A DNA stretch of 64,000 nucleotides from the NCBI GenBank assembly GCA_963751665.1, contig CAVVVF010000001.1:18652-82651 (forward strand), written 5' to 3'. Positions 13,092-39,783 of the stretch are shown one piece after another (position 1 is the first letter of the stretch; the number at the start of each line of letters is the position of its first letter). The notes beneath the pieces were generated by a model. It saw only the letters and a list, made by a program, of their open reading frames with translations. It was not told the origin of the DNA and did not search any database. Source of the DNA: an uncultured Actinomycetes bacterium (lineage in GTDB: Bacteria; Actinomycetota; UBA4738; HRBIN12). The position numbers and the translations under genes were made by a program.

Positions 13092-13113
13092 ACCGGGCGG
13101 GGACGGCGGAGCG

Positions 13114-14037
13114 GTGGCCGGCGACGCGATCGCGGTTCGGCGGCCGACTGCGGGCCTCGGGCGGGCCGTCGCCGCCGGCTCGCCCTACCTGCTGATCGCG
13201 CCCGCCCTGCTCTTCATGGCCGCCGTGTCGGTCTACCCGCTGTTCTACGGCGTGCGCGCGAGCCTGGCCGCGTACAAGTACGGGCGCGAACTGGGCTTCC
13301 ACGGGCTGGACAGTTACCGGACGGTGCTCGCCGACGACGTCTTCTGGCAGGCGATGTACGTGACGCTGCGGTTCGTCTTCCTGGCGGTGACGATCGAGAC
13401 GATCCTTGGCGTCGCCCTCGCCGTCCTGCTCTCGCGCGACCTGCGGTTCGCCGGAGCGATCCGCACCGGGTTGATCATCCCGATGACCGTGGCGCCGGTT
13501 GTGGTCGGCATCGTGTGGCGGCTGCTCTATGCGTCCGACGTCGGCATCGTGAACCCGCTCTTCCGGATGGTCGGGCTGCACGCGCCCGACGTGCTCTCCC
13601 ACGGCACGAGCGCGTTCATGGGTCTCGTAGCCGTCGACGTGTGGGAGTGGACGCCGCTCATCATGTTGATCGTGCTGGCCGGGCTGAACGGCCTGCCTCG
13701 CGACCCGATCGAGGGGGCGCGCGTCGACGGGGCGAGCGAGCTGCGCGTCTTCTTCGACCACACGCTGCCGCTCGTGCGTCCGGTGCTGCTCGTGGCGATC
13801 ATCCTTCGGACGATCGACGCGATCGGGACGTTCGACCAGGTGTTCGTGCTGACGAAGGGCGGACCCGGCACGTCCACCCAGCTGATCGCGATCTACGGCT
13901 ACAACACGGCGTTCCGCTTCAGCCAGTACGGGCAGGCTTCGGCGATGATGCTGCTGGTGCTCGTCGGGATGTCCGTGCTGCTGGTTGCGGCGATCCGTAC
14001 CATTCGCGGCGCGGCGAAGAAAGCGACGGGCGCGTAG
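13114..14037 (+). CDS. carbohydrate ABC transporter permease (MalF/UgpA-like)
   Basis: Six-helix TM profile with EAA-like loop ...VDGASELRVFFDHTLPLVRPVL. Confidence 0.75.
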   Translation: MAGDAIAVRRPTAGLGRAVAAGSPYLLIAPALLFMAAVSVYPLFYGVRASLAAYKYGRELGFHGLDSYRTVLADDVFWQAMYVTLRFVFLAVTIETILGVALAVLLSRDLRFAGAIRTGLIIPMTVAPVVVGIVWRLLYASDVGIVNPLFRMVGLHAPDVLSHGTSAFMGLVAVDVWEWTPLIMLIVLAGLNGLPRDPIEGARVDGASELRVFFDHTLPLVRPVLLVAIILRTIDAIGTFDQVFVLTKGGPGTSTQLIAIYGYNTAFRFSQYGQASAMMLLVLVGMSVLLVAAIRTIRGAAKKATGA

Positions 14038-14864
14038 TGCGCAGCCGAACCCGGACGGTGACGATGTACGTGGCCATCGCGTTCGCGCTGGTGATCGGGC
14101 TATTCCCCATCTGGTGGATGATCGTCACGTCGTTCAAGCAGCCAGTCGACATCTACTCGGGCGTCTCAATGATCCCTCAGCACTTCACGATGGACAACTA
14201 CGTCGAGCTGTTCCGAGACCGGCACTTCGGCAGCTATCTCGGTAACAGCCTGGTGGTCGTCGCGCTCTCGGTGGCCATCAGCCTGGCCGTCGGGACGCTC
14301 GCCGCGTACGCGCTGACGCGATCGACGATCGGCGAGCGCATCGGCCGTCTCTCGCTCGTCGGGGCGCTCGTCGTGCGCATGGTGCCGCCGATCCTGCTCG
14401 CGATCCCGTTGTACATCGTGCTCGGGAAGTTCGGACTGCTCGACACGAAGCTCGGCCTGATCTTCGTCTACGCCGGGCTCAACGTGAGCCTTGTGGTCTG
14501 GATGATGGAGAGCTACCTGGGCGAGATCCCGCCCGAGATCGAGGAAGCGGCGCTCGTCGACGGGGACACGCCGCTGTCCGCGCTTCGCCGGATCATCCTG
14601 CCGCTCGCGGCCCCTGGCATGGTGGCGACGGCGATCTTCAGCGTGATCGTCACGTACAACGAGTTCCTGTTGGCCCTGTCGTTCACGTCGACGCCGAACT
14701 CGCAGACGATCACGGTGGGCGTGAGCACGCTGATCGGCAAGATCCAGATCGAGTGGGGGCCCATGGCGGCCGCCGGCGTGATCGGCGCCGTTCCGATCAT
14801 CGTCTTCGCGCTCCTCGTGCAACGTCACTTCGTCCGGGGTCTCACGCTCGGGGCGATCAAGTAG
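14038..14864 (+). CDS. carbohydrate ABC transporter permease (MalG/UgpE-like)
   Basis: GTG start abutting upstream stop; EAA motif EEAALVDGDTPLSALRRIILPLAAPG. Confidence 0.75.
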
Positions 14865-18000: not shown

Positions 18001-18590
18001 GGGTCGCCCTCGACGTGGCGAGGCAGAAGCAGCCGATCGCGCTCCCGTGGGTTATGGGCGCGAAGTCGGAGCTCCACCTTCTGGCAGGCGAGCTCGACGA
18101 GGCCGAGGCCGCCGTCGGTGGGAGCCAGGTCGAGCTGCTCCCGGAGCCGCTCCAGTCCACAGCGTCCATCCACGTGGCGCTCGTCCGCGGCCGCATCGCC
18201 TTGGCGAGAGGCGACCAGGCCCGAGCCGTCGAGATCGCCGACACGATCCTCGAGCGTTTGCGCCGGCTCGAGGTCCGGCAGTTCGCCGCAGACGTCCTCT
18301 TGCTCAAGGGAAGCTCACTCGCCTCGGCTGGAAAGACCGATGAGGCCGAGCGCGTGCTCGGGGAGGCGCGGGCGGAGGCGGAGAGGCTCGAGTGCCGGCG
18401 AATCTTGTGGGAGGTGCTTTGGGCGCTGAGCGAGATCTTGGACGTACAGGGGAACGCGGAGGACGCCAAAGAGCTCCGGGCCGAAGCTCGGCGCCTCGTT
18501 GAGCGGATAGCGGAAAGTGTCGATGAGGAGGAGCTCCGGTTGGGCTTCCTGGAACGGCCCGACGTGATGGTCGTGCTTACCGACCATTGA
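15048..18590 (+). CDS. class III adenylate/guanylate cyclase with N-terminal zinc ribbon, AAA/STAND NTPase and C-terminal TPR repeats
   Basis: CPECATPNPDGARFCLNCG; cyclase core FCDVVGSTAMAERL...GDAIFAFFGAP...RVGINTGPVVVGEVGS...AMGDAVNVAARME; Walker A GEAGLGKSRL; long TPR-like C-terminus; intact 1180 aa. Confidence 0.8.
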   Translation: MVCPECATPNPDGARFCLNCGVPLERSSSTGRATRLESYLPSGMLAKLEAARAGRSMQGERRIVTMLFCDVVGSTAMAERLDPEEWTEIMNGAFENLIAPVYRYEGTLARLMGDAIFAFFGAPIAHEDDPQRAVAAGLEIVEGIRAYRERMKGDRDLDLNVRVGINTGPVVVGEVGSDLRLEYTAMGDAVNVAARMEQTAEPGTVQITAETHRLVAPLFDVESRGAVQVKGKAEPVAAYRVVRRKKQPGPTRGFRAGGAPLVGRGREMALLQRAVDEVIDGRGQIVSLIGEAGLGKSRLIEETREVWATRRAEGDYEVGDIRRIWEVWQCVSYDTTRPYAQYRRMLAKIAGIDDTDPPDVVREKLARTIDFSADWVEPHMRVWRSLFGIPEPGEVPLEGEAFRRAITELVVSSTRHVGSEPRLLVFEDLHWCDEASMDLLIETAKVVDDLPSLFLFAFRPDRQAPSWRLKQWLEVEYPHRSTEIVLTPLSDQESSDLIDELLPEEGRSDTIRTQILERTEGNPLFVEEVAAAVLEQGSTDEGIAVPTTLQALITARLDTLDDEARRTLQLASVIGRSFLEPVLAAVAGDGTDLRARLSTLERVSLISETARMPEREYAFHHSLTQEATYGTILRRERRKLHLRVGEALERLYVNRIEDFAPLLARHFQEAGDDDRTLRYATVAGDHAAKLYANADAVTHYTNAIDAARRLERSEEQLRLFPSRGRAFELAARYDDAVANDESWRALAEEGGDRSAVLGAEMALATLFSTPTPKFDAERGRALSERTLDLARELGDRVAESKALWNLMILNVYGGGDLREAVDAGERSLAIARELDAREQMAFTLNDLWRPNVAIGGLGASRASLEEARTLWRELGNLPMLSENLASSASVARLVGNDRDALALAEEAHGIAKDIGNLWGQAYSLMNIYGIYLDRGELGRAMETMRECIAIAEPAGFIPPQATTRADLASVHAYLGDLEGAQELVRVALDVARQKQPIALPWVMGAKSELHLLAGELDEAEAAVGGSQVELLPEPLQSTASIHVALVRGRIALARGDQARAVEIADTILERLRRLEVRQFAADVLLLKGSSLASAGKTDEAERVLGEARAEAERLECRRILWEVLWALSEILDVQGNAEDAKELRAEARRLVERIAESVDEEELRLGFLERPDVMVVLTDH

Positions 18591-18670
18591 CATCGGCTGG
18601 TCTCTTTCTCTTCCGCGCAGAGCGCGCGGGACGACTATGTTTGGTCCGACTGACGGGTGGGAGCCGCGGC

Positions 18671-21532
18671 ATGGGGATCGCTTCACGAACGCTGCGCATC
18701 AGGACAGGCGAGGGTCGCATTGCGGCGCTGCTTGTCAGTCTGACGTTCGCGTCTATGGCCGCCCTTACGGTGGGCGAGAGCGGGATCGACGCGTTGTTCT
18801 TCGACCGCGTCGGCACGGACGCGCTTCCGCTCATGTACCTCCTGCAGGGAGGCGCGACGTTCGTTGCGATGCTGGTGCTCACAGGCATCCTCGGTAGGTT
18901 TGGCCCGCGACGGGCGTACGTCTTGGCACCCCTCGCACTTGGCGTGCTCGTGGTGGCCGAGCGCAGCGTGCTCGTCACCGACGTCCGGTGGATCTACCCG
19001 GTCCTGTGGGTAACGGTCGCTCTCGCTTGGCTCATCCAGGGCATCTTCCTGTGGGGAACGGCTGGGGCCGTCGTCGACACTCGGCAGGCCAAGCGCCTGT
19101 TCCCGATCTTCGCTGCCGGGGGAATCCTCGGCTCAGTCGTCGGCGGCTTGATCACGCGGCCCATTGCCTCGACGATCGGAGCGGAGAACCTCCTTCTCGT
19201 CTGGGCGGGTGTGCTCGGCGGCGTATTCGTCTTGTGTCGAGCGGCGCTCGGTCCTGCCTCGGGCGGCGTACGCCGACGGGTCGCGCGGAAGCGCGTGTCG
19301 GCGCTGAAAGACATTGCCCAAGGCCTCGCGTACGTTCGTCGATCGAGGCTGCTCATGTGGATGACGGCCGCAGCGGTCCTTTTCTCCGTCCTCTACTACT
19401 CGCTGTACCTGCCCTACGCGCGGGCCGCGAGTGATCGCTTCCCGGACGCAGACAAGCTCGCCGGCTTCTTCGGGCTGTTCTGGGCGGGCGTGACCGGTGT
19501 CGCGTTCCTGGTCTCCATGCTGCTCACGAACCGCCTGTTCGCATGGTTCGGCTTGGCGGCGATGGTCATCGTGCTCCCGATGCTGTACACGGGGGCGTTC
19601 GGCATCCTCCTCCTGGGATCGGGGTTCCTGACACTGGTCGCGGTACGGTTCGCGATCGGTGTGTGGCTCCAGGGTGTCGCATCGCCGGGTTGGGAGACGC
19701 TCGTCAACGTCGTCCCGGAGACCAGACGCGACCAGACGCGGGCGTTCCTCAACGGCGGGCCGGCGCAGATAGGGACGGCGATCGCAGGCGTCGTGGCGCT
19801 CGTCGGTCAGGACGTCTTGACGCAGCGCCAGCTCGCTGCTATCGGTCTTGTGGCGGCAGCGTTGACGGTCGTCGCGGCGTTCGGCATCCGCCGATCCTAC
19901 GCGGACGCGCTTGCAGACGCCCTCCGCGCCGGCTGGCCGCAGGTGTTTGACCGCGCCTTCGTCCGCGGGATCCCGATCCCGGTCGCCGTCGATGCAGAAG
20001 CGGCACGGGTACTCGCCGACTTGGTGCGATCGCCGGACGTGCGCGTCCGTCGGCTCGCGTTCCAGATGGTCGCTGACCTGCCGCCGGACACACGACCGAT
20101 CGAGTTTGCGGAGGGGCTCGACGACGCCGACCCGATCGTTCGGCTCGCCGCCGTCCGGGCCCTCGACGTTGCGACCATCTCTTGGCGCGATGCGCTGTTG
20201 GCGAGGATCGACGACCCTGACACTGCGGTCGCCGCAGCGGCAGCCGCGCGCGCGATCGGCCTCGTCGCGGACCCAAGACCGGCGGCTCGACTGCGCGAGC
20301 TCCTCGCCGCCGCCGACACCGAGACTCGTCGCGCGGCGCTCGAGCAGCTCGCGCTCGCGCCGCGCGATCAAGCGGCGGCGTTCGCCTCGGAGCTGGTCGC
20401 CGATGCGTCCGGCGACGTCCGTGCCCTGGCGCTCGAGAGACTGGCCGATGCCGCCCCCGCCGAAGCCGTAGAGCCTGCGCTCGCCGGGATGGGGGACCCG
20501 GACCCCGCGGTCCGGATGGCGGCGGGGCGGGCCCTCGGCATGGCGGACGGCCGAGCTCTTGACCACGTCTTGGCAGCACTCGACGATCCACAAACGGCCG
20601 GTGCCGCAATCGAGGCGGTTCGCCGTTTGGAACTCGACGGCAGGGGAGATCGGGTCCGAGAATTCGTCCGTTCGACGGCCGCGCGCGCCATGCGAGATCG
20701 GGAACTGGTCGCCGCGATCCCTCCCGACGGGGAAGAGGTCTCGCTCCTGCGCGATGCGATCCTCGATCGGGGACGACGCGTAGCCCTCTCCGCCCTCTGG
20801 GCGGCGACGATGGTCGCCCACCGGCGCGGCCTGATGGTGGAGGCGATCGAGAACCTTGACAGCAAGTCCGGTCAACTCGCGAACGCGCTCGAGACGCTCG
20901 AGGCCGCGGGGGACCCACTCGTACATCCACTCCTCGGCCTGTGGGAGCCCGCTGGAGCAATGACCCACGGCGCCGGCGAGGACTGGCTGGCCCGGGCCCT
21001 CGCGGACGGTGACGGATTCATCGGTCAATGCGCGGAGCTCGTGCGCGCTCGAAGAGAAGGAGAATCGATGACTGGGTCGACGATGACGCTCTCGGTGATC
21101 GAACGGGTGCTCTTCCTCCGGCAGGTTTCGCTGTTTGTCGATCTCCCTCCGGCCGATCTTGAGCGCGTGGCCTCGATCGCCGATGAGCTCAGCTATTCCG
21201 ACGGGGACGTGATCGCAGCGGAGGGCGAGTTCGGCCAGGAGCTCCACATCGTGGTCGATGGGACATTGCTGGTGACCCAGGACCGCGACGGATCGGAACA
21301 GGAGCTGGCGCGCCGAACCACCGGAGACGTTGTGGGTGAGATGTCCCTCATCACCCAGACGCCGCGGATCGCCTCGCTCGTGGCCGACGGCGATGTACGC
21401 ACGATCCGGATCGGCCATCGAGAGTTCGAGAGCATGCTTCGCGAGCGCCCTGGGGTCGGCCTCGCCGTGATGCGTGTGCTCGCCAATCGCCTCGCAGAGG
21501 TGTCGCCCCGTCCGGAACCGGGCAGGGTATGA
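18671..21532 (+). CDS. TLC (ATP/ADP translocase-like nucleotide transporter family) membrane domain fused to HEAT/PBS-lyase repeats and a C-terminal cyclic-nucleotide-binding domain
   Basis: About 12 TM helices with NTT-like motif QAKRLFPIFAAGGILGSVVGG; repeated DPD/DPDPAVRMAAGRALG HEAT-like units; cNMP fold LFLRQVSLFVDLPPADLERVA...GEMSLIT...RTIRIGHREFESMLRE. Frame is open from a TTG at 18587 overlapping the upstream stop; first ATG at 18671. Confidence 0.7.
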   Translation: MGIASRTLRIRTGEGRIAALLVSLTFASMAALTVGESGIDALFFDRVGTDALPLMYLLQGGATFVAMLVLTGILGRFGPRRAYVLAPLALGVLVVAERSVLVTDVRWIYPVLWVTVALAWLIQGIFLWGTAGAVVDTRQAKRLFPIFAAGGILGSVVGGLITRPIASTIGAENLLLVWAGVLGGVFVLCRAALGPASGGVRRRVARKRVSALKDIAQGLAYVRRSRLLMWMTAAAVLFSVLYYSLYLPYARAASDRFPDADKLAGFFGLFWAGVTGVAFLVSMLLTNRLFAWFGLAAMVIVLPMLYTGAFGILLLGSGFLTLVAVRFAIGVWLQGVASPGWETLVNVVPETRRDQTRAFLNGGPAQIGTAIAGVVALVGQDVLTQRQLAAIGLVAAALTVVAAFGIRRSYADALADALRAGWPQVFDRAFVRGIPIPVAVDAEAARVLADLVRSPDVRVRRLAFQMVADLPPDTRPIEFAEGLDDADPIVRLAAVRALDVATISWRDALLARIDDPDTAVAAAAAARAIGLVADPRPAARLRELLAAADTETRRAALEQLALAPRDQAAAFASELVADASGDVRALALERLADAAPAEAVEPALAGMGDPDPAVRMAAGRALGMADGRALDHVLAALDDPQTAGAAIEAVRRLELDGRGDRVREFVRSTAARAMRDRELVAAIPPDGEEVSLLRDAILDRGRRVALSALWAATMVAHRRGLMVEAIENLDSKSGQLANALETLEAAGDPLVHPLLGLWEPAGAMTHGAGEDWLARALADGDGFIGQCAELVRARREGESMTGSTMTLSVIERVLFLRQVSLFVDLPPADLERVASIADELSYSDGDVIAAEGEFGQELHIVVDGTLLVTQDRDGSEQELARRTTGDVVGEMSLITQTPRIASLVADGDVRTIRIGHREFESMLRERPGVGLAVMRVLANRLAEVSPRPEPGRV

Positions 21533-24387: not shown

Positions 24388-25369
24388 GGCGTCCTCCCTC
24401 CCGGCAACCCGAGCCTCGGGCCGGGCCGGAGTCGCCTTCGCGCTATCCCTATCTCCTGTTCACCTCGATTCATACCGGTGCACGGGTGGCTTATCAGGGC
24501 CAGAGGACCTGGAGTCGATGTGCCCATCGGGACCCGGCACGGGGCATCCCGGCCGCCCGCGCTGGCTTCGGCGCCTAGCTCAGCGGCTGGTTTCGCGCGA
24601 CGTCGGCGGGCGTTCTCTTGCGCCAGGGCAGCGCGCCACGACGTCGATGTCGATCGCGGAGCTGAGCAGAACTCTCACGAGGACAATCACACCGAGGGTG
24701 GTGGCACTCTCTAGCGTCGGCGCCACGCCTGTCGTGCGGACGATGTCGACGCCTGACGCCTGGAAACGCCGCGAAGCACCGACAGGACGTGGGTGCCGAA
24801 ACGAGGTCGCTCCCGCCGATCACCAGCACGAGGACGCCCTTGCGCTCTTCGCCATCGCTTTGGCCTTCAGATCGGATCTCTAGGGCCTGTGACGAACCCT
24901 TTATCATGCCCTCGATTCGATCCGCGTCTCGATGGATCCGGGGAAGCTCGGGCCAGCAAGACCCAGAAAGACCCAGCAATGACAAGGCGACCATCTCAAG
25001 GTGGAGTTTTCGGGGAACCCCGCCAACGCGGCGGCGGGCCTTAGCGTGGCTCCGGTGCTCGTCGGTATGACGGCTGCTGTGGGCGTCGCGATGCTGGTGC
25101 GAGCGGAGCGTCCCCAGGAGTGGCTGCATCTCCTGCCCGGGGTCGTCAAGTCGTCCACTCGCCCCGTTGGTTGGTCCGCAGACGAGAAGGGGTACCAACA
25201 TGCGCGGGCTGCTCGCGTCCTCGTGCCAACGGTGCCAGTCAAAGATTCGTGGACCCCGCAGGCCATGACAAGGCCGGGCAAGCACGCCGGCCACGACCTC
25301 CAACACCGTGGACAGGATCATGGGCAAGGTGCTCACTCCGGCGCGGCGGCAGATGAATACACTCCCGAC

Positions 25370-26578
25370 ATGGGCGGCGATGAGGGGCTGCGTGCCGTTG
25401 AGGCGGAGAACCGGCTGCTCCGCCGGGTGATCGAGACGATCACATCGAATCTCGACCTGGACACCTTGCTCGCCTCCTTGATCGACCTGGTTACCGAGGC
25501 GACCCGGGGCGACGCGTGCTTCCTATTCCTCTGGGACCCCGACGAGGAGCAGCTCGTGCTGCGCGCCGCCTCCCCCGAGTTCGAGGGAGCGGTGGGCTCT
25601 GTCCGCTTGCGTCTGGGCGAAGGCGTTTCCGGCTGGGTCGCCGAGAACCGGGAGGTCGTCGCGATCCCCGAGGACAAGTGGTCCGACCACCGGTACAAGT
25701 ACAACCCGGAGCTTGAGGGCGAACGGTTCACGTCGATGCTGTCGGTGCCGGTGGTCTCGAAGACGGGCGTGCTCCTCGGCGTCTTCAACGTCCACACGCA
25801 TGCCCGCCGGGACTTCAGCGAGCGGGACATCCGGTTCCTCCGGCTTACCGCCTCCCTTGTGGCTGAGTCCATCGAACACGCCCACCTGTTCGGAGCGCTC
25901 GCTGACAAAGAGTCGGCGCTCGAGGCGCTCGTGCGAACCACGATCGAGGCTCAGGAGGAGGAGCGTCGCCGCGTGGCCACCGAGATCCACGACGGCGTGA
26001 CGCAGCAGCTGGTTTCGATCTGGTACCGGCTCCAGGCGTGCGGGAGAACGCTCCGCGTGGATCCGGGCCGCGCCGAGCACGAGCTGGCGACGGCCCGTGA
26101 CCTGGTGGACGGTGCGCTCGAGGAGGCGCGATCCGCGATCTACGACCTGCGGCCCTCGCTCCTGGACGACTTGGGACTCTCCCCCAGCCTGCGAGCCCTC
26201 GCGCTCAGCCAGCTCGAAGGGGAGGCAAAGGTGGATCTGCAGATCGACGACGTGGTGCAGCTCCCGCCTCACCTTGAGGTGGCCCTGTATCGGATCGCCC
26301 AGGAGGCGTTGACCAACGTCCGCAAACACGCCCGGGCATCGCGCGTGAAGATTACCCTCCGAGAAGCCGACGGCTATCTTGAGCTCGAGATCGAGGACGA
26401 CGGCTGTGGGTTCGCGAGCCAGCCCTCGCAGTCGCAGCGCCCACCGACTTCGTTCGGTCTCACCGGTATGGCCGAGCGGGCGTCGCTGATCGGGGGCGAA
26501 CTCAGCCTGCGGAGCGCCCCCCGCCGCGGCACGGTCGTCACTGTTCGCGTCCCGACCCAGGCCGAGGCGCGCACGTGA
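25370..26578 (+). CDS. GAF-domain sensor histidine kinase (HisKA_3 + HATPase_c, NarL-partner type)
   Basis: GAF region then phospho-acceptor ATEIHDGVTQQLVS and ATPase motifs ALTNVRKHARA, DDGCGF, GLTGMAERA. Confidence 0.75.
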   Translation: MGGDEGLRAVEAENRLLRRVIETITSNLDLDTLLASLIDLVTEATRGDACFLFLWDPDEEQLVLRAASPEFEGAVGSVRLRLGEGVSGWVAENREVVAIPEDKWSDHRYKYNPELEGERFTSMLSVPVVSKTGVLLGVFNVHTHARRDFSERDIRFLRLTASLVAESIEHAHLFGALADKESALEALVRTTIEAQEEERRRVATEIHDGVTQQLVSIWYRLQACGRTLRVDPGRAEHELATARDLVDGALEEARSAIYDLRPSLLDDLGLSPSLRALALSQLEGEAKVDLQIDDVVQLPPHLEVALYRIAQEALTNVRKHARASRVKITLREADGYLELEIEDDGCGFASQPSQSQRPPTSFGLTGMAERASLIGGELSLRSAPRRGTVVTVRVPTQAEART

Positions 26579-27228
26579 ACGAGCCGATGCGCGTGGTGTT
26601 GGTGGATGACCACCGCGTGGTGCGCGAAGGCTTGAAGGCCATGCTCGAGGACGTCTCGGAGCTGGAAATCGTGGGGGAGGCGGAGGACGTCGCCGGTGCG
26701 CTCGTCGCCATCGAGAACGGCCGGCCCCACGTTGTACTTCTCGACGTTCGGCTCCAGCGATCGAGCGGCCTCGATGCGTGCCGAACCATCCGGGAACGCC
26801 ATCCCGAGGTGAACGTGGTCTTCCTCACTGTTTACGAGGACGAGCAGTACGTCTTCGAGGCCCTCCGCGCCGGCGGCCGCGGCTACATGTTGAAAAAGGC
26901 GCTCCCCGAGGACATCGTTCGGGTCCTGCAGGCGGTGCAGGGAGGCGATATCGTCATCGACCCGGCGCTCGGGGGCCAGATCGCCCTGCGAGCCGCGGCG
27001 CTCCGCGAGGGCAACGAATGGCCGGGCGCTCACCTCGGCCTCACGCAGCGCGAGGGGGAGGTCCTCGGCCATCTCGCCAAGGGACTGGACAACCGGGCAA
27101 TCGCCCACGCCCTGTACATCAGCGAGGGGACCGTGAAGTCCCACGTGAAGGGCATCTTTCGAAAGCTCGGCGCCAAGGACCGAGCTCAGGTCGTCTCGAT
27201 TGCGCTTCGCGAGGGCTTGGTTCGCTGA
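26575..27228 (+). CDS. response regulator, NarL/FixJ (LuxR-type HTH) family
   Basis: Receiver VVLVDDH...LLDVRL and C-terminal LTQREGEVLGHLAKGLDNRAIAHALYISEGTVKSHV; start overlaps kinase stop. Confidence 0.8.
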   Translation: MNEPMRVVLVDDHRVVREGLKAMLEDVSELEIVGEAEDVAGALVAIENGRPHVVLLDVRLQRSSGLDACRTIRERHPEVNVVFLTVYEDEQYVFEALRAGGRGYMLKKALPEDIVRVLQAVQGGDIVIDPALGGQIALRAAALREGNEWPGAHLGLTQREGEVLGHLAKGLDNRAIAHALYISEGTVKSHVKGIFRKLGAKDRAQVVSIALREGLVR

Positions 27229-27270: not shown

Positions 27271-28194
27271 CTAGCGCCCGATCGCGGGGGGCCGCGCGGC
27301 CAGCACCGCGCGCCTCGCGGCCGCGCCGGAGGCAAAGCGCAGGAACGCCTGGGCCGGAGCCGGCAAGAACCCGTCCTCCAGGTATTGCAGGAACCATCGT
27401 CGCCGAAGCGGCGTTCCCCGCGCCCGCAGGCGTGCCAGGGTCCCGGCTGCGATCTCCAAGGCCACCGCCTGAGCCGAGATGAGGGTCACGCCGAGCCCGA
27501 CTGCAGCTGCTTGTTTCACGGCTCCATTGCTGCCCAGGTTCAGCACACGCCGGGGCTCGATCTCGTGCCGGGCAAGGAACTCCTCCGTCGTAGAGCGCGT
27601 CCCAGAGCCGGGCTCGCGAAGGAGCCATGTGTCGTTGAGCCGTCGCGGGTCGATGCCCGAGCGACCGGCTAGCGGATGGTCTGGAGCCGACACGATGACC
27701 AGGTCGTTCGCGAGGAACCCCCGGCCGTCGACGGGCCCGTCTGCCGGCGGACGTCCGCCGACGGCCAGGTCCGCCTCCCGGGCCAGCAAGCGCTCCAGAA
27801 CCAAAGCCCGGTTCCCCACCTCCAGCACCGGGTCCACCTCCGGGTACTGTTCCTGAAAGGCCTTGAGGATGGGGGGGACAACGTACTCGCCGGCGGTCGT
27901 GACCGCGGCGAGCCGCAGTCGGCCCCGGCCAGGGTGCGCGGCCGCGACGGCGGAGTCCCTACCCTGTTCCAGCAACGCCAGGCACTGCGCCGCGAAGACG
28001 GCCAGGGCCTCGCCCGAAGGGGTCGGGCGCACGCCCTGCCGGTCCCGGACCACTAATCGGACGCCCACGTCGCGCTCGAGCGCGGCCAGGCTCGCCGAGA
28101 CCGCCGGCTGCGTCACATACAGCTCGGCTGCGGCGCCAGTCACCGAGCGGTGTCGCACCACCGCGAGGAATGCACGCAACTGAGCGAGGGTCAT
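27271..28194 (-). CDS. cbbR: LysR-family transcriptional regulator, divergent from RuBisCO genes (CbbR-like)
   Basis: [43 protein letters not shown]; position divergent to cbbL is the canonical CbbR arrangement. Confidence 0.7.
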
Positions 28195-28285: not shown

Positions 28286-29728
28286 ATGGCCCTCACCAAC
28301 CACACGAAGTTGTTCGACGCGGGAGTGAAGCTCTACAAGGACATGGGCTACTTCGAGCCCGGCTACGCGCCGAAGGAGACTGACGTCCTCGCGGCGTTCC
28401 GTGTCACGCCTCAGGAGGACGTCCCCCCCGAGGAGGCCGCTGCGGCCGTCGCCGCCGAGTCCTCGACCGGCACCTGGACCTCGGTCTGGACCGACCGCCT
28501 CACCGACCTGGAGCGCTACCGGGGCCGGTGCTACCGGATCGACCCGGTCCCGGGCGAGCCGAGCCAGTACATCGCCTACGTCGCCTATGACCTCGACCTG
28601 TTCGAGGAGGGTTCGATCGCGAACATGGCCTCATCGATCGTCGGGAACGTGTTCGGGTTCAAGGCCCTCCGGGCCCTCCGCCTGGAGGACCTTCGGGTAC
28701 CGATCGCCTACCTGAAGACGTTCCAGGGACCGCCCCACGGGATCCGGGTGGAGCGCGACAAACTGAATAAGTACGGCCGGCCCCTGCTTGGCTGCACGAT
28801 CAAGCCGAAGCTCGGGCTCTCCGCTCGCACCTATGGGCTCGCGGTATACGAATGCCTGCGCGGAGGTCTCGACTTCACGAAGGACGACGAGAACATCAAC
28901 TCCCAGCCGTTCATGCGCTGGCGGGACCGGTACGAGTTCGTCATGGAGGCGGTTCGCAAAGCCGAGGACGAGACCGGGGAGCGCAAGGGCCACTACCTGA
29001 ACGTCACCGCCCCAGGATTCGAAGAGATGATCGAGAGGGCCGAGCTCGCGAAGGAGCTCGGCGCGCCGATCATCATGGTCGATTACCTCACCGTCGGGTT
29101 CACCGCGTTCACGTCGCTGTCGCGGTGGTGCCGACGGAACGGGGTGCTGCTGCATTGCCACCGTGCCATGCATGCGGTAATCGACCGCCAGCGCAACCAC
29201 GGCATCCACTGGCGGGTGCTCGCGAAGTGGTGCAGGATGATCGGGGCAGATCACCTGCACAACGGGACCGTCGTCGGGAAGCTCGAGGGCGACCGGGCCG
29301 CGACGATGGCCATCAACGACCTCTTGCGGGAAGACTTCGTCGCGCGGGATCGGTCGCGCGGGATCTACTTCGACCAGCCCTGGGCGTCGTTGCCGGGCCT
29401 GTTCCCGGTGGCTTCGGGCGGGATCCACGTCGGTCACATGCCGGACCTCGTTGCCATCTTCGGCGACGACGCAGTGTTCCAGTTCGGGGGTGGGACGCTT
29501 GGCCACCCTTGGGGCAGCGCAGCCGGAGCCACCGCGAATCGGGTCGCGCTCGAGGCCGTGATCCAGGCCCGAAACGAAGGCCGGGAGATCGCTGCGGAGG
29601 GCGCGGACGTCCTACGGAAGGCGGCGGCGCACTCTCCCGAGCTGCGCGCGGCCCTCGAGACGTGGCAGGATGTCACCTTCGAGTTCGATGCGGTCGACGC
29701 CCTCGACCAAGCACAGGTGACGTCGTGA
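28286..29728 (+). CDS. cbbL: ribulose-1,5-bisphosphate carboxylase/oxygenase large subunit, form I
   Basis: Signature [42 protein letters not shown], followed by small subunit gene. Confidence 0.9.
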
Positions 29729-30042
29729 CGACGAGCACTCGCCGCCTGGAAACCTTCTCCTACCTGCCGCCTCTCACCGACGAGCAGATCACCGCGCAGA
29801 CCGGCTCGATCCTGGAGCGCGGGTTGATCCCCGCGATCGAGCACACGACCGACCCTGGACCGCGAAACACCTACTGGAGCCTGTGGAAGCTCCCGCTGTT
29901 CGACGCGCGAACGCCGGAGGCGGTTCTGGCCGAGGTCGAGGCCTGCGCGCGAGCCAACCCCGACGCATACGTCCGGCTGAGTGGCTACGACCCGAAGCGC
30001 CAGGGGCAGGTCGCGAGCTTCCTGCTCCGCCGCCCCAGTTGA
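29725..30042 (+). CDS. cbbS: RuBisCO small subunit
   Basis: [14 protein letters not shown]...[11 protein letters not shown]; GTG start overlaps cbbL stop. Confidence 0.85.
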
Positions 30043-31293: not shown

Positions 31294-32688
31294 GTGACGA
31301 CCCCGGCCGGGTCGATCCTCCTCGCCGGCGGGGCGATGTCGAGCCTCGACGACTACATCGCCGCGGGCGGAGGGAGGGCGCTCGTCGCGGCGCTCGAACG
31401 CTCGCCGCAGGCGGTGATCGATGAGGTGAAACGCTCGGGCCTTCGGGGCCGCGGGGGAGGGGGGTTCGCTACAGGCGTGAAGTGGGAGTCCGTCCGGTCC
31501 GACCCATGCCCCACCAAGTTCGTGATCTGCAACGCGGCCGAAGGGGAGCCCGGCACGTTCAAGGACCGCTGGCTCCTGCGGCACAACCCCTACCAGGTGC
31601 TGGAAGGCATCGCCATCGCCACCCGCGCGGTGGGGGCCGACCGCGCGTTCATCGCGGTCAAGCGCGCGTTCGAGCGGGAGATCCGCACGCTTCGTCGAGC
31701 CATCGCCGAGATGAGAGGGAGCGACATGCTCGGCCCCGTTCCCATCGAGATCATCCTTGGGCCCGACGAGTACCTCTTCGGAGAAGAGAAGGCGCTCCTC
31801 GAGGTGATCGAGGGGAACGACCCCCTCCCGCGGATCCTCCCTCCCTACCAGGTTGGGCTGTTCGCCAGACGGGGATCTAGCAACCCCACAGCCGTCAACA
31901 ACGTCGAGACCCTTGCCAACGTGCCTCACATCATCACCAAGGGCTCGGAGTGGTTCCGGTCGTTCGGAACCGAGACCTCGCCTGGGACCGGGGTGTTCAC
32001 CCTGTGCGGGGACGTGCGCCGGCCCGGCATCTATGAGCTCCCCCTCGGCCTGCCCCTACGGACCCTCCTGTACGACATCGGCGGAGGCTCGCCCGAGGGC
32101 AGAGCGCTAAAGGCCGTCTTCCCCGGTGCATCCAACGCAGTCCTCTCGGCCGAGCAGTTCGACACCCCGATGGACTTCGACTCGATGAGGGCGGTGGGGT
32201 CCGGGCTGGGATCGGCGGGATTCGTGGCGTACGACGAGTCGGCGTGCATCGTGAGGGCCACCCTCGCGTACTCTCGGTTCCTCTACGTCGAGTCGTGCGC
32301 GCAGTGCCCGGCCTGCAAGCAGGGCTCCGAGGAGATCACCGACTGCCTGGAGAGGATGGAGCGAGGCGAGGGCTCGGAGTCAGACGTAGAGTCCGCACTC
32401 GCCAGGTGCCTCGCGGTGACGGGTGGCCGGCGGTGCGCCCTTCCCACGGGTGAGTCGCTTCTCGTCCAGAGCGCCATCCACGCGTTCGAGGTCGAGTTCC
32501 GGGAGCACCTCGGCCGGCCCTGCCCCAGGCCGCGCGACCTTCCTCTCCCCAAGCTCGTGGACTTCGACGAGGAGGGCGGGCGGTTCGTTTACGACGACCG
32601 GTATCGGCTGAAGCGGCCGGACTGGACGTTCGAATCCGGGCGGAAAGGTGCTCGGTCGATGCCGGCGCGAGAGGAAGCACCAGCGTGA
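31294..32688 (+). CDS. NuoF-like NAD(H)-binding FMN/Fe-S flavoprotein (Complex I 51 kDa family), stand-alone
   Basis: GLRGRGGGGFATGVKW FMN/NADH motif, C-terminal 4Fe-4S cysteine cluster ESCAQCPACKQG. Confidence 0.75.
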   Translation: MTTPAGSILLAGGAMSSLDDYIAAGGGRALVAALERSPQAVIDEVKRSGLRGRGGGGFATGVKWESVRSDPCPTKFVICNAAEGEPGTFKDRWLLRHNPYQVLEGIAIATRAVGADRAFIAVKRAFEREIRTLRRAIAEMRGSDMLGPVPIEIILGPDEYLFGEEKALLEVIEGNDPLPRILPPYQVGLFARRGSSNPTAVNNVETLANVPHIITKGSEWFRSFGTETSPGTGVFTLCGDVRRPGIYELPLGLPLRTLLYDIGGGSPEGRALKAVFPGASNAVLSAEQFDTPMDFDSMRAVGSGLGSAGFVAYDESACIVRATLAYSRFLYVESCAQCPACKQGSEEITDCLERMERGEGSESDVESALARCLAVTGGRRCALPTGESLLVQSAIHAFEVEFREHLGRPCPRPRDLPLPKLVDFDEEGGRFVYDDRYRLKRPDWTFESGRKGARSMPAREEAPA

Positions 32689-33356
32689 AGGTGGGAGACC
32701 TCGCCACAGCCCCGGTCGTTTCCGTCCGCCCGGAGCAGTCCGTGCGCCAAGCCGCGCGAGTGATGATGGAACACGGAACCGGCTCGACGGTCGTCCTCGA
32801 TGGGGGAGCGCTGGTCGGGATCCTGACCGAGCGAGATCTCCTGCGGGCCGCTGCGACGGGAACGGATCTGGACGGGACGAGGGTCGAGCAGTTCATGTCC
32901 CCGCACGTGAAGACGATCGGTCCCGACTGGGAGGTCTACGAGGCAACGGCGGAGATGGCGGCCCAGCACATCCGCCACCTGGTCGTATGTGAGAACGCGC
33001 AGGTGGTCGGCGTCTTGTCGGTACGGGACGTGCTCCTGGCGGGCCAGCGAGTGGAGCTCACGGCCGGGAGCTGGGCCGTGCTGCGGGACCCGTTGACCTT
33101 GACCATCAGGGAACGCCGACGCCTCCAGCGGTGCCTACTCATGCTCCGCGGGACCGACCCCGCCGAGTTCGAGCTCGCGGGCTTGATCGGCCTCCTGGTG
33201 GGGAGCTGGTCGTTTGAGGTGGCCCTTCCGGCAGAGTCCGAGAGCCTACGGTCGATACCCGCCGCAGACTATGAGTTGCTCAGGGCGGCGGTGTTGGCCG
33301 AGCTCCCCGACCTTCAGCGCTCCGTGCACCCCTCACCCGGGTGGCGGCGGAGGTAA
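32685..33356 (+). CDS. CBS domain pair protein
   Basis: Two CBS-like units (…VVLDGGALVGILTERDLL… / …HLVVCENAQVVGVLSVRDVL…); overlaps upstream stop. Confidence 0.65.
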   Translation: MKVGDLATAPVVSVRPEQSVRQAARVMMEHGTGSTVVLDGGALVGILTERDLLRAAATGTDLDGTRVEQFMSPHVKTIGPDWEVYEATAEMAAQHIRHLVVCENAQVVGVLSVRDVLLAGQRVELTAGSWAVLRDPLTLTIRERRRLQRCLLMLRGTDPAEFELAGLIGLLVGSWSFEVALPAESESLRSIPAADYELLRAAVLAELPDLQRSVHPSPGWRRR

Positions 33357-33394
33357 GAGACAGCGTGAAAGATCGACGAGCCCTGGAAGTGCAC

Positions 33395-34105
33395 GTGAGA
33401 GAGCCCGCGATCGTCGCGTCGGTCCTTGGCGCCGATTACGCCAACCTGGGGCGGGAGGTGGCGGAGCTCGAGGCCGCCGGGGTCGACCGCATCCAGTGGG
33501 ACGTGATGGACGGGCGCTTCGTCCCGAACCTGACGTTCGGTTCCGACGTCGTGGCCGCTTGCCGCCGCCTCTCGGAGCTTCCGTTCGAGGCCCACCTCAT
33601 GGTTGAGGAGCCCGATCGATGGCTCGAACCCTTCGCCGCCGCCGGCTGTGACACGTTGATCGTCCACCAGGAGGCGTGCCGGCACCTGCACCGGACGCTC
33701 ACGCAGATTCGGGCGCTAGACGTGCTCGCGGGCGTCGCGCTCAACCCGGCGACCCCGATCGAGTGCGTGCGTCACGTGCTCGACCAGGTCGACGTCTTGC
33801 TCGTTATGACCGTCAACCCCGGCTTCGGAGGGCAGTCGTACATCGCGGCGATGGAGGAAAAGGTGGCCGAGGCCCGGCACCTGATCGACCGGTCGCGGTT
33901 CGCTACGACGATCGAGGTCGACGGGGGGATCTCCGCTGCGACCGTTGCGGGGGCGTGGAAGGCCGGGGCGGAGCTCCTCGTAGCCGGATCGGCCATCCTC
34001 GGCCATGCCGAGGGGAAGCAGGCCGCGGTGGCCGAGCTCCGGCGATGCCTGGAGCTCTCACAGAGACCGGTCCCAACCCGCGGACCGTTGGAGTCCCAAC
34101 GATGA
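33395..34105 (+). CDS. rpe: ribulose-phosphate 3-epimerase
   Basis: [35 protein letters not shown] motifs; start codon choice (GTG 33389/33395) uncertain. Confidence 0.8.
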
Positions 34106-36163
34106 CCCTCTCTGGCGCCGCCCGCCCAACGGCTCACGCCGGCGACCTCGATGACCTCTGCATCAACACGATCCGTGCCACAGCCGTGGACGCGATCGAG
34201 AGGGCGAACTCCGGTCACCCAGGGACTCCCATGGGGGCCGCCCCCATGGCGTATGTGTTGTGGACCCGCTTCCTGCGGCACAACCCTCGAAACCCTCGTT
34301 GGTCTGACCGCGACCGGTTCGTGCTTTCGGCCGGGCACGCCTCCATGCTCTTGTACGCGCTGCTGCACCTGACCGGCTACGACGTTGCGCTCGAGGAACT
34401 CCAGCGGTTCCGCCAGTGGGGATCGAGGACCCCGGGCCATCCCGAGTACGGACTCACACCGGGAGTGGAGACGACGACCGGGCCCCTCGGCCAGGGGTTC
34501 GGGAACGCCGTGGGGATGACGATCGGCGAGCGCATGCTCGCCGATCGCTTCAACCGGCCCGGCCTCGACATAGTCGACCATTACACCTACGCCATCTGCT
34601 CCGACGGGGACATGATGGAGGGGGTGGCCTCGGAAGCCGCATCGTTGGCCGGCCACCTGGGCCTTGGCAAGCTGATCTGCCTCTACGACGACAACGACAT
34701 CTCGATCGACGGCCACACCGACCTATCGTTCAGCGAGGACGTGGGGAGCAGGTTCGATGCTTACCGCTGGCACGTCCGGCACGTGTTAGACGGCAACGAC
34801 CTTGCAGTCCTGGAGGCGGCGCTCGCCGAAGCGCGGGAGGAAACTGAACGTCCCTCCCTGATCGTGGTGAGGACCCACATCGGATTTGGTGCTCCCACGA
34901 AGCAGGACACGGCGGAGGCGCATGGGGCTCCCCTCGGAGCCGACGAGGTGAGGGCGTGGAAGGAGCGGATCGGCTGGCCCGACGGCGAATTCTTCATCCC
35001 CGAGATGGCCCAGTGCCGGTTCCGCGAGGCCCTGGAGCGCGGCGCCGAGCTGGAGCGGGGCTGGCGTCGGCTGTTCGAGCGCTGGGCGGCGGCGGAGCCC
35101 GACCTCGCTGCGGAGTGGGACCGAGTGATGGCAGGCCGCTTGCCTCTCGGTTGGGAGCAAGGGTTTCCGGATTTCCGAGATCAGACCGCGTTGTCCACCC
35201 GGAAGGCTTCCGGGAAGGTCCTGGGGGCCTTGGCCACGAGACTCCCCGAGCTGGTCGGGGGCTCGGCCGACCTGACCGAGTCGACCAACGTCGCGTTGCC
35301 GGGCGAGACGTCGTTCTGCCGTGAGCGCACCGGTCGCTACATCCACTTCGGGGTGCGAGAGCACGGCATGGGAGCCATCCTGAACGGACTGTCGCTCCAT
35401 GGTGGGCTTCGACCGTTCGGGGGGACCTTCCTGATCTTCTCGGACTACATGCGCCCGTCGATGCGCCTGGCCGCACTGATGGAGCAGCCGGTCGTCTACG
35501 TCCTCACCCATGACTCGATCGGTCTGGGGGAGGACGGCCCCACCCACGAACCTGTGGAGCACCTCCCGTCGCTGCGGGCCATGCCCGGGCTCGTCGTGAT
35601 TCGGCCGGCAGATGCGGCCGAGACCGCCGAGGCCTGGAAGGTGGCACTCGAGCGTCGGGACGGTCCGACCGCGCTGATCCTCTCGAGGCAGGACCTTCCC
35701 GTGCTCGATCGAGATCGGCTCGCTCCCGCCGGTCTCCTGGCTCGCGGAGCGTACGTGCTAGCCGACGCTCACGGCCAGCCGGAGGACCTCATCCTATTAG
35801 CCTCCGGGTCGGAGGTGCCCGTCGCCCTGGCCACGGCAGACCTCTTGCAGTCCGAACACGGGCTGTCCGTGCGGGTGGTGAGTATGCCCTCGTGGGAGCT
35901 GTTCGAGCAACAGGACGAAGCGTACCGTGGGAAGGTCCTCCCCCCCGACATCCCCGTCCGGTCTGGCTGTGGAGGCCGCAACTCCCCTCGGATGGACCCG
36001 GTGGGTGGGCAACGCGGGAGCGGTGGTGGGGGTCGATCGCTTCGGGGCCTCCGCCCCCGGTTCGGTCGTCCTGGAGCAGTACGGCTTCACCGCAGAGAAC
36101 GTGGCGGCCCGCGCCTTGGAGCTCCTGCTCACGAGCGGGTTGTCCTCGACCTTGGGGAGGTGA
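34102..36163 (+). CDS. tkt: transketolase (apparent frameshift near 35950 before last about 70 aa)
   Basis: SGHPGTPMG thiamine-PP motif, full TK domains; C-terminal [16 protein letters not shown]...[16 protein letters not shown] only in a second frame. Confidence 0.75.
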
Positions 36164-36165
36164 GG

Positions 36166-37440
36166 GTGGTCCCTTCCATCCGTCCCTACCGACCGGACGA
36201 CCTCGGCCGGATCGTCGAACTGTGGTCCGGGGCGGGCGAGCCTCCGGGCTTGGTTCACCAGCTCCACGAGGTCCTGAGCCTCGTCAACCACGAGAGCGCC
36301 ATCGTCCTCGTGGTTGAGAGGGAGGGCGAGATCGTCGGGGCGGGCTTCGGTACCGTGTCTGGTGCTCTCGGTTGGATCCATGATCTCGCCGTTACCGAGC
36401 GGCCCGAGGCCGATGTCGCCCTTGACCGCCTCATCGACCAGATGGAATCTGGGATGGCCGATCGGGGCGCGCACGTGATCGATGCCCTCGTCGGAATCGA
36501 AGGACGCCTGCACCGAGGCCTTCGGCAGCGGGGCTACGAGATGGTCCGCGACGCCGTCTGCGTTCGGCGGGATATCTCCAGCACCGTCTCTGCCCCCTCG
36601 GTCCTGGCGGAGCTCGGAGGCGTCACGATCGACCCCGGCCTGTGGGATCGCCTCAAAGGGATGGAAGGGCCCAAGGACATCATCGAACGGCGGGTCATCC
36701 TTCCCCTTTCCGAGCCGGAACTCGCCGAGCGTCACAGCGTCGAACGACCGAAGGCGATCGTCCTGTTCGGGCCACCTGGGACCGGCAAGACGACGTTCGC
36801 CAAGGGGATCGCGTCCCGGCTCGGGTGGCCCTTCGTAGAGATCGAGCCGAGCGGGCTCGTCGACGAGGGTATCGAGCACGAGGGGAGGCTCCTCGCCCGA
36901 GCCTTCGAGCGGCTCCTGGAGCTGCCCTCGGCGGTGGTGTTCGTCGACGAGGTGGAGGACCTCGCCTCGATCCGTCACAACGAGCGCAGGGTGAGCCCCA
37001 GCGTGACGAACGAGTTCCTGAAGCAGATCCCCAGATTCCGGACGGTCCCGCATCACCTATTGGTGTGCGCTACGAACTGGGTCGGAACGCTGGATCCAGC
37101 GTTCCTCCGCCCGGGCCGGTTCGACTACGTCTTGCCCGTCGGGCCGCCGGACGCGGTCGCCCGGGCCGCCATCTGGCGTCGTTACGTAGCGGAGATCAGC
37201 GATCAGGACATTGACGTCGACGTTCTGGTCGAGGCCACCAGGTACTTCACGCCTGCAGACATCGAGTTCGCTGCCCGCAAGGCGGCCCAATCGGCGTTCG
37301 AGCGGGAGGTCTTCCGAGGGTCCGGGGCCAAGGCCGGCACCGATGACTTCCTGAATGCGATCGGGCAGATGAAGCCCACCCTCTCGCAGGAGATGATCGA
37401 GGTCTTCGAGGGGGACGTCGAGCGGTTCGCCCGGTACTGA
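36166..37440 (+). CDS. GNAT acetyltransferase domain fused to AAA+ ATPase (FtsH/CDC48-like core), within cbb operon
   Basis: N-terminal GNAT fold ([19 protein letters not shown]...WIHDLAVTE), then Walker [10 protein letters not shown], Walker [10 protein letters not shown], second region of homology [19 protein letters not shown]. Confidence 0.65.
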
Positions 37441-38593: not shown

Positions 38594-39783
38594 TCATGCC
38601 GCCCTCATGTACTCGTGGACGAGCCCACCGAGGAGATCTCGCCGTTCGATGTCGGGCACGCCGTCGGCCTCTTCGACGGGAGCGAGACTCTCGGGTACCT
38701 GCAGCTCCAGTCCTCGATGCGGGCGTCGCCGGTTGTAGTGCTGCGCATAGATCCGAATGATGCGATCGAGATGCCGGGGGCCGAGGATCAGCAGCCAGTC
38801 CAGGCACTCTGCGCGAAGCGTCTCTATCCAGCGCTCGGCGAAGGCATTGGCGTTCGGCGCCCTGATCGGCGTGCAGGTCACCCGGATCCCTTCTGATACG
38901 AAGACATCATCGAAGGAGCGGGAGAACTTGGCGTCTCGGTCGCGGATGAGAAAGCCGATCTGCGTGCCCTCCTCGGCGGGCCCATCGCAAGGTTCCTCGC
39001 CTGCTGGGTGACGAAGGAAGAGTCCGGGTTGGTCGTTGAGACCGTGACGTGCACGCGCCGTGTCCCGATCTCGATGAAGAACAGGACATAGAGCGTCTTG
39101 AGAAACGCCGTCTCGACCGTGAAGAAATCGCAAGCCTGGACGCCCGATGCCTGAGCCTTCAGGAACTGGCGCCACGTCGGGCCCCGGCGGGGGGCCGGAC
39201 CGACGCCGGAGCGGCGAAGAAGCATCGCGACGCTCGTCGCGGACACGCGGATCCCCAGCTTTCGCAGCTCGCCTTTGATCCTCATGCATCCCCACCGGGG
39301 GTTCTCTCTTGCCATCTGAAGGATCAGCATGCAGACCTCTGGATCGATCGCGGGGCGCCCGGGCGGGCGATGCGGCCTCGTCCACTTTGCCGCGACGAGT
39401 GACCGGTGCCAGCGCAGAAGCGTCTCGGGACGAACGAGGAACGCACCCCAGCGCTCTTTGGGAAGGATCCGGCTTGCTGCAGCGAGCAGCGCACGGTCCC
39501 CGTGCCGGTAGACCGGGCGCTTGACCTGTCGGCGTAGGACCTGGAGTTGGTGGCGAAGGACAAAGATCTCAATTGCGGCATCGTCGGAGCGATGTTTCGG
39601 CGCGACAAGGGTGAGGAGCCGACGAAGCATCATATAGAGGAGTGAAGCAAGCATGGCGGCGATACTGTCATGCCGGGCGATGCTCAACCACCGACCACTC
39701 CGGCGGGGCTGCCTGATCGAGTTCTTGTACCCCACGGGTTCGTAACGGAACCGACATCGGCCTCCAGGAGGCAGCTGCGCCAC
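38594..39783 (-). mobile_element. rve/DDE-type IS transposase (IS481-like), single frameshift near 38980
   Basis: N-terminal HTH and start of integrase core (CDFFTVETAFLKTLYVLFFIEIGTRRVHV) in one frame; rest of core (IRDRDAKF...HYNRRRPHRGL) in another. Confidence 0.6.

Follow-up and report, generated by a model that had tools for sequence, protein, structure and literature searches.

Known RuBisCO activase genes directly adjoin the RuBisCO genes cbbL and cbbS (cbbLS), and to our knowledge the activases come from three AAA+ lineages only. Threading unfoldases, CbbX and Rca included, depend on an aromatic residue in pore loop 1, a dependence that for these two activases was reportedly established by Mueller-Cajar in 2011 and in later work. 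In a genome-wide survey of genes associated with the Calvin-Benson-Bassham (CBB) cycle, CbbX and CbbQ were the only activases reported to accompany them (PMC7895386), and AAA+ proteins are said to have been recruited as RuBisCO activases at least three times (10.1101/2020.06.14.151407). The gene considered here lies in a 64,000-nucleotide stretch of DNA (the window) from an uncultured Actinomycetes bacterium (GenBank assembly GCA_963751665.1, contig CAVVVF010000001.1), where it sits in a cbb operon and encodes a GNAT-fold domain fused to one AAA+ module. A sequence-only reading of the window had assigned this fusion to the place usually held by an activase, and proposed either a novel activase or an acetylation-dependent regulator of CBB enzymes. 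Comparison with related loci shows that the family is not a dedicated RuBisCO-activase family. We give about an even chance to the view that the protein is an ATP-driven accessory factor, encoded by a captured member of a stand-alone gene family, that remodels or regulates a Calvin-cycle client without processive threading; the CBB role is suggested by gene order alone.

The fusion itself proved real. The open reading frame (ORF) encodes 424 amino acids, against the roughly 425 of the sequence-only reading, and the product contains both motifs quoted for its AAA core (GPPGTGKTT and a 19-residue stretch). Its GNAT part is weak when the single sequence is searched and solid at family level. The parts of the gene are as follows.

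36156..36160, + strand, Shine-Dalgarno-like GGAGG in the 3' end of tkt, 5 nt 5' of the GTG start; kept in relatives
36166..37440, + strand, GNAT-fold–AAA+ gene; intact ORF with GTG start, 424 amino acids plus stop, full-length homologues at 55–98% identity
36166..36591, + strand, N-domain with YpeA-like GNAT fold, residues 1–142 (profile, AlphaFold2 (AF2) and Foldseek)
36400..36420, + strand, motif A position, residues 79–85, RPEADVA; the YpeA counterpart is FRGRGIA and both glycines are lost
36592..36756, + strand, linker plus AAA N-terminal helices, residues 143–197, beginning PSVLAELGG and ending in a 10-residue motif; aligns with the Cdc48/VAT D1-D2 linker and D2 start
36769..36792, + strand, Walker A GPPGTGKT, residues 202–209, invariant
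36859..36876, + strand, pore loop 1 position, VDEGIE, residues 232–237, placed by hidden Markov model (HMM) alignment to VAT D1 and D2
36934..36951, + strand, Walker B VVFVDE, residues 257–262; D261 and E262 invariant
37075..37077, + strand, sensor-1 Asn304 (in CATN), invariant
37108..37119, + strand, arginine fingers R315 and R318 in the second region of homology (within a 10-residue motif), invariant
37141..37437, + strand, helical lid and C-terminal helices, residues 326–424 (AAA_lid_3 match and AF2 secondary structure)

The gene starts 2 nt beyond a tkt stop codon (TGA at 36161–36163), and an alternative GTG start at 36160 overlaps that stop. Downstream, 60 bp separate it from a class I fructose-bisphosphate aldolase gene (fba, start 37501), which is indeed the next gene, as the sequence-only reading had it. 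The claimed start just after the tkt stop holds as to spacing, but the stop is out of frame with the main tkt ORF as a result of a 1-bp insertion. Compared with L083 and L087 (L numbers designate the loci compared here), the insertion is an extra G (CCGG versus CCG); the tkt ORF as read has no stop and runs into the GNAT-AAA frame, giving an ORF of 1,254 codons (33676–37440). The extra base may stem from faulty sequencing or assembly, or else the frameshift or fusion is genuine. A promoter and terminator scan gave no signal separating the gene from tkt or fba, and such a scan is uninformative in high-GC DNA.

Pfam places the AAA domain (PF00004) at residues 198–325 (E = 8e-25) and AAA_lid_3 at residues 348–381. 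A 10-residue stretch of the AAA N-terminal segment is invariant among the relatives aligned, and two further stretches, of 18 and 10 residues, are invariant in 22 relatives, so that the motif set of a classical-clade ATPase is complete and ATP hydrolysis in a ring is to be expected. The pore is a different matter: in the HMM alignment, E234-G235-I236 lie opposite W-V-G of VAT D2 and Y-Y-G of VAT D1, and an aromatic residue at pore loop 1 is absent from all 90 family sequences inspected. Processive threading is therefore unlikely. The best structure matches of a profile built from the 22 relatives were to D2 of archaeal VAT and Cdc48/p97 (query residues 144–421), and Foldseek searches with the full-length model returned the same classical-clade AAA matches. 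The curated models for CDC48, PAN, CdvC, FtsH, Mpa and IteA all scored far below their cut-offs; hence, the protein belongs to none of these families. A proteasomal or ARC-type ATPase with an established other role, which the sequence-only reading had named as a possible identity speaking against its proposal, was not what the searches returned, the likeness to Cdc48 D2 and PAN being sub-threshold only. The full-length AF2 model is of moderate quality (predicted local distance difference test (pLDDT) 73, predicted template modelling score 0.47), and we drew nothing from it on domain packing or oligomeric state.

The N-domain gave no Pfam GNAT match at E ≤ 0.01 when the window sequence was searched alone. 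Nonetheless, an NCBIfam GNAT model (NF002959) matched the window protein at E = 3e-8, Acetyltransf_1 (PF00583) was matched by 9 of 13 relatives, and the profile of the N-domain matched PDB entries for YpeA over its full length (E = 1e-16). The AF2 model of residues 1–142 (pLDDT 84.7) superimposes on YpeA structures 2pdo, 4qus and 4qvt with Foldseek template modelling scores of 0.77–0.79 at about 25% identity. The second proposal of the sequence-only reading was an acetylation-dependent regulator. In such a protein, the AAA module would link remodelling either to acetylation of CBB enzymes by the GNAT domain or to its sensing of acetyl-CoA. That the GNAT fold is clear speaks for this proposal; so does a deep Microbacteriaceae branch that retains a canonical motif A (QSQGIG), since the ancestral fusion may then have been catalytic. 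In the window protein, however, the glycines of motif A (Q/R-x-x-G-x-G/A, the acetyl-CoA pyrophosphate loop) are absent, and a column survey found the motif A loop unconserved across the large clade to which it belongs. Moreover, seven metagenome contigs (L105–L111) encode 326-residue members from which about 100 residues of the GNAT domain have been deleted, while the AAA module remains highly conserved. These losses weaken the proposal, and we regard an acetylation-dependent regulator as very improbable. To judge by the residues it has lost, the N-domain of the window clade is most plausibly a pseudo-acetyltransferase that serves in binding. The shortened members (e.g., L105 4755–5735) keep only GNAT beta1-alpha1 and part of alpha3, and their AAA module is about 70% identical to that of the window protein.

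Loci were compared through their 10-kb flanks, and cbb linkage was scored as a cbb gene within 10 kb, detected by tblastn with the cbb proteins of the window. Among the best 120 of 5,548 matches, more than 100 were full-length homologues (about 424 amino acids) at 55–98% identity. When the N-terminal 240 amino acids were searched against species-representative genomes, at least 463 loci were returned, and in each of the best 80 species the match extends over the N-domain. These 80 include metagenome-assembled genomes (MAGs) from Solirubrobacterales, Thermoleophilia, Gaiellaceae, Acidimicrobiia and Rubrobacter, as well as cultured Microbacterium, Cryobacterium, Kineococcus, Gordonia, Brachybacterium and Kitasatospora and an Aquiluna with a genome of 1.39 Mb; many cultured genomes carry one copy per locus. 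The window protein shares both the two-domain architecture and the family signature, which consists of a 10-residue block, TGKTTFAKG, an 11-residue block and a second 10-residue block. All-versus-all clustering of the ORFs within 6 kb at about 115 loci found no neighbourhood conserved across the family, only generic ABC ATPases and Cryobacterium-specific synteny. The family gene is normally stand-alone and is not RuBisCO-specific: of the best 80 species loci, L015 alone has a cbb gene at a distance of 10 kb or less, a fragment of a cbbL pseudogene. The sequence-only reading had held that homologues never occurring together with RuBisCO genes would refute it, and the survey comes close to this, with homologues mostly standing alone in contexts that lack cbb genes. 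In a Microbacteriaceae MAG (L076), a transketolase gene at 12456–14363 on the – strand (50% identity to that of the window) lies about 1.2 kb downstream of the family gene on the opposite strand, probably by chance.

Among close relatives in the clade of the window protein (76–98% identity), the picture is one of repeated linkage. The GNAT-AAA gene directly follows tkt in the same operon in L083–85 (98% identity), L087/88 (83%), L090/91 (85–87%) and L124 (81%), and the operon of L124 ends with this gene and is followed by an insertion sequence (IS). Operon membership has thus been kept in at least five lineages under purifying selection, the cbb-linked copies showing a synonymous divergence (dS) of up to about 0.39 and a ratio of nonsynonymous to synonymous divergence (dN/dS) of 0.19–0.26. 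Basal to these are the stand-alone copies L123 (76%) and L125/126 (78%), which are homologous to the window over the ORF and not a base beyond it. Copies L086, L089 and L001 (87–91%) are nested within the cbb-linked crown, yet lie outside a cbb operon, and in two of them decayed remnants of the tkt 3' end stand upstream of the gene (about 175 bp in L001 and about 55 bp in L089). Neighbor-joining (NJ) bootstraps gave 96% for the crown clade and 95% for a group of L089, L001, the window and L083. The simplest history is that a stand-alone gene came to lie behind tkt by capture, and that some lineages later lost it from the operon. One further contig, L092 (1–1401), has the CBS-pair gene and the 5' part of rpe joined straight to the GNAT-AAA start (window 33509 to 36159); either the remaining part of rpe has been deleted together with the whole of tkt, or the join is an artefact of assembly. 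Here again the breakpoint falls at the 5' border of the gene.

Two more cbb adjacencies occur in subclades at about 57–58% identity to the window protein. In L095 the order is GNAT-AAA gene, prk, NuoF-like gene, CBS-pair gene, cbbL and cbbS, and in L015 the cbbL relic lies 1.4 kb downstream, past a DUF1232 gene, and amounts to 110 amino acids with an internal stop. By a rough estimate, chance would not be expected to bring a single gene next to cbb DNA three times independently, which argues for some functional coupling. The search for the same fusion beside RuBisCO in other genomes, which the sequence-only reading had proposed, was positive for related operons, for L095 and for the relic in L015, and otherwise negative within 10 kb in the best 80 species loci.

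These observations bear first on the possibility that the gene is a housekeeping or general AAA+ gene without a Calvin-cycle role, which was brought into a plastic, IS-rich region by rearrangement and is simply transcribed along with the operon. No neighbourhood is conserved across the family, breakpoints fall repeatedly within 10–175 bp of the ends of the gene, IS or transposase genes flank the end of the operon in the window, L083/84 and L124, and related cbb clusters do without the gene. On the other hand, the tight start–stop junction with tkt has been kept in several lineages over a dS of up to about 0.39, and independent cbb adjacency in two other subclades is unlikely to arise by chance for a single gene. 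We consider such a passenger unlikely, albeit deserving of serious weight.

The same variable contexts, with breakpoints at the gene borders, might also suggest a mobile defence-type ATPase (IetA/IteA-like or TRIP13-like) moving as a single-gene cassette, and the window protein does match PADLOC IetA (E = 3e-25) and NCBIfam IteA (E = 7e-25). The scores, however, are 87–88 bits against a cut-off of 510, below the generic Cdc48 and PAN matches, and the PADLOC match covers the AAA core only. No IetS-like partner was found, many cultured genomes have a single copy per locus, and the sequence is strongly conserved. The defence reading raised by PADLOC, which reflects generic AAA similarity to IetA and TRIP13 only, was set aside, and we rate it as extremely improbable.

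A stronger role has also to be weighed, namely that the protein represents a fourth, independently evolved class of RuBisCO activase that uses ATP to release inhibitory sugar phosphates from a green-like form I RuBisCO. Operon membership conserved under purifying selection is consistent with this, as are the intact ATPase motifs, the cbb genes or relics that adjoin the gene in three family subclades, and the repeated recruitment said of AAA+ proteins above. No CbbX, CbbQ/O or Rca was found in the operon and the neighbourhood annotated, and no other AAA+ gene was found in related cbb clusters within the 10-kb scope. When all long ORFs of the window were scanned for Walker A, no other classical AAA+ protein was found either; in that sense the fusion is the only AAA+ gene, as had been claimed, but the sole other P-loop regulator from the scan, a STAND-type cyclase-AAA_16-TPR protein at 15048–18590, limits the statement to classical AAA+.

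Several results weigh against an activase. The family is widespread in heterotroph genomes and almost never near cbb genes, and the cbb-linked copies are nested among non-linked ones at 76–91% identity, being monophyletic in only 1 of 100 NJ replicates. Copies outside the operon are still under purifying selection (dN/dS 0.12–0.24), which speaks against a dedicated activase. Five cbb clusters (L119, L120/121, L122 and L127) have neither the GNAT-AAA gene nor any other AAA+ gene within 10 kb, although their CbbL proteins are 79–85% identical to that of the window or 92% identical to that of L095; hence, any CBB role is dispensable, and the RuBisCO lineage does not require the gene. The L095 adjacency is itself open to doubt, as sibling contigs that share 99% identity across the gene differ from it starting 9 bp beyond the stop, and a chimeric assembly is therefore possible. 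In addition, the protein lacks the aromatic pore loop 1 on which CbbX and Rca depend, and the gene is not adjacent to cbbLS but lies about 6 kb downstream of cbbS, so that it does not occupy the position of known activase genes, contrary to the sequence-only reading. Of the novel-activase claim, what stands is a real, conserved operon member in a locus with no known activase family; what does not is RuBisCO specificity. We therefore judge a true activase to be improbable. The broader statement that GNAT-fold–AAA proteins are a fourth recruited remodeller of RuBisCO or another Calvin-cycle enzyme, non-threading and docking on its client through the pseudo-acetyltransferase, and serve the green-like form I RuBisCO of uncultured soil Actinomycetota without Rca, CbbX or CbbQ/O, is in our estimate improbable to the same degree.

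In the reading we favour, that of an accessory remodeller or regulator, the protein, with its complete ATPase motifs, would form an ATP-hydrolysing ring, which would remodel or hold a client recognised by the GNAT-fold N-domain without threading it processively. Having no acetyl-CoA pyrophosphate loop, the N-domain would most likely be a binding module and not an acetyltransferase. The gene was captured behind tkt in the cbb operon at the base of the crown clade of the window, and its start abutting the tkt stop would lead to co-expression with RuBisCO, PRK, RPE, TKT and FBA. From capture and co-expression together, the most likely role of the protein in the window lineage is to help to remodel or regulate a Calvin-cycle protein, and this client may be RuBisCO, PRK or another protein of the cycle.

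The operon is encoded on the + strand in the order cbbL, cbbS, prk, NuoF-like gene, CBS-pair gene, rpe, tkt, GNAT-AAA gene and fba, with a LysR-type gene divergent on the – strand. Its other genes, preceded by the LysR-type gene, are as follows.

27271..28194, – strand, divergent LysR-type (CbbR-like) regulator, by domain annotation
28286..29728, + strand, cbbL for the large subunit of a green-like form I RuBisCO; a start at the ATG farther upstream (28208) would probably over-extend the gene
29725..30042, + strand, cbbS, small subunit, 105 amino acids; the L087 orthologue carries PF00101
30186..31268, + strand, prk, phosphoribulokinase; true start probably near 30350
31294..32688, + strand, NuoF-like flavoprotein with FMN/NADH and 4Fe-4S domains
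32685..33356, + strand, CBS-pair protein
33341..34105, + strand, rpe
34102..36163, + strand, tkt; a 1-bp insertion near 35959–35960 shifts the last 67 codons
37501..38523, + strand, class I fructose-bisphosphate aldolase (fba), last gene of the operon

By its sequence, the RuBisCO of the window is green-like and not red-type. Against PDB, CbbL scored 874 bits with an ancestral form I enzyme (7qsw), 809 bits with a cyanobacterial one (2ybv) and 656 bits with a red-type one (1bxn). A red-like form IE RuBisCO, first assumed from the C-terminal sequence, was ruled out by this comparison, in which green-like and ancestral form I enzymes are closest. CbbL as a whole is nearer to green-type and reconstructed-ancestral form I (7qsw, cyanobacteria and plants) than to red-type enzymes, and the nearest named relatives of the actinobacterial CbbL include Limnochorda, Carboxydochorda, Rokubacteria and Chloroflexi at 77–79% identity.

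Directly after prk, the NuoF-like and CBS-pair genes (window 31294–33356; also L083, L087, L090, L095, L119, L120 and L124) occur in 7 of the 9 cbb clusters examined and are more constant than the GNAT-AAA gene. The NuoF-like flavoprotein scored 356 bits against a cut-off of 559 for the NuoF equivalog model. The pair may be redox- or adenylate-sensing regulators for PRK or the cycle, and we know of no description of them in such a role. A GAF-histidine kinase (HisKA_3) and a GerE-type response regulator are encoded upstream of the cbb cluster, together with the LysR-type (CbbR-like) regulator, in the window (25001–27228) and in L087, L119, L120, L124 and L127. Farther upstream in the window (15048–21532), the gene for the adenylate cyclase-AAA_16-TPR (MalT-like) protein precedes one for a HEAT-repeat protein that carries a cyclic nucleotide-binding (cNMP-binding) domain at its C terminus; in L001 and L086, where the GNAT-AAA gene lies outside a cbb operon, cNMP-binding genes are also its neighbours. 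Transposase, integrase (HTH_32, rve) or serine-recombinase genes stand directly after cbb clusters (window 38878–39783 on the – strand, L083 8430–9511, L124 11538–12464 and L119 13140–18991), and gene order varies among related cbb clusters. The cbb region lies in a plastic and probably mobile stretch.

Green-like form I RuBisCOs of soil Actinomycetota are relevant to trace-gas chemosynthesis. The cbb clusters examined encode enzymes of this kind, and none of them showed a known activase gene within 10 kb; the GNAT-AAA gene, present in some of these operons, was the only AAA+ candidate that they yielded. If it has no CBB role, it would be an uncharacterised housekeeping ATPase that drifted into the operon. 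Independently of this question, the analysis defines a large actinobacterial family, unstudied even in cultured Microbacterium, Gordonia and Kitasatospora, whose members join a GNAT fold to a Cdc48-D2-like ring that has a non-aromatic pore. The literature searched held no described GNAT-AAA protein, family or activase, in agreement with the earlier claim that the architecture is not a described one; the combination of a GNAT-AAA fusion with a non-aromatic single ring also appears to be undescribed.

Set beside known systems, the AAA module resembles most closely D2 of Cdc48/p97/VAT: residues 144–421 correspond to the end of the D1-D2 linker and all of D2 (VAT 5vc7, 148 bits per domain), and the two have Walker A and B, sensor 1 and the arginine fingers in common. 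Unlike those proteins, the window protein has one AAA module in place of a tandem D1-D2 and a GNAT N-domain in place of a double-psi barrel, and the W/Y-hydrophobic-Gly of pore loop 1 is replaced in the family by E-G-I/A; it scores 122 bits against a cut-off of 802 with the Cdc48 family model TIGR01243. The N-domain matches the Escherichia coli/Shigella GNAT protein YpeA from end to end and shares its beta1-alpha1-alpha2-beta2-4-alpha3-beta5-alpha4 topology, but has RPEADVA where YpeA has the acetyl-CoA loop FRGRGIA, and is fused to an AAA module whereas YpeA is free-standing.

Like CbbX, the protein belongs to the AAA+ proteins with a single ring and its gene is part of a cbb operon, a likeness that amounts to functional analogy only. 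It has neither AAA_lid_6 nor the pore-loop tyrosine, its gene lies away from cbbLS, and its RuBisCO is green-like; the CbbX model was not among the best 25 NCBIfam matches, the weakest of which had E = 1.6e-3. CbbQ/CbbO and Rca are likewise AAA+ proteins tied to green-type RuBisCO. In the window protein, however, AAA_5 matches the Walker A stretch only, and the MoxR-type AAA_5 plus CbbQ_C arrangement is lacking; no VWA partner (CbbO) was found among the annotated operon and neighbouring genes, a set that does not comprise every ORF of the window. Rca was not among the best 60 PDB matches of the family profile. A non-aromatic pore loop 1 is shared with rings of the p97 D1 and NSF D2 type, which go with non-threading, structural or regulatory roles. 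Each of those is one ring of a two-ring machine, whereas in the window protein the non-aromatic ring is the sole ring.

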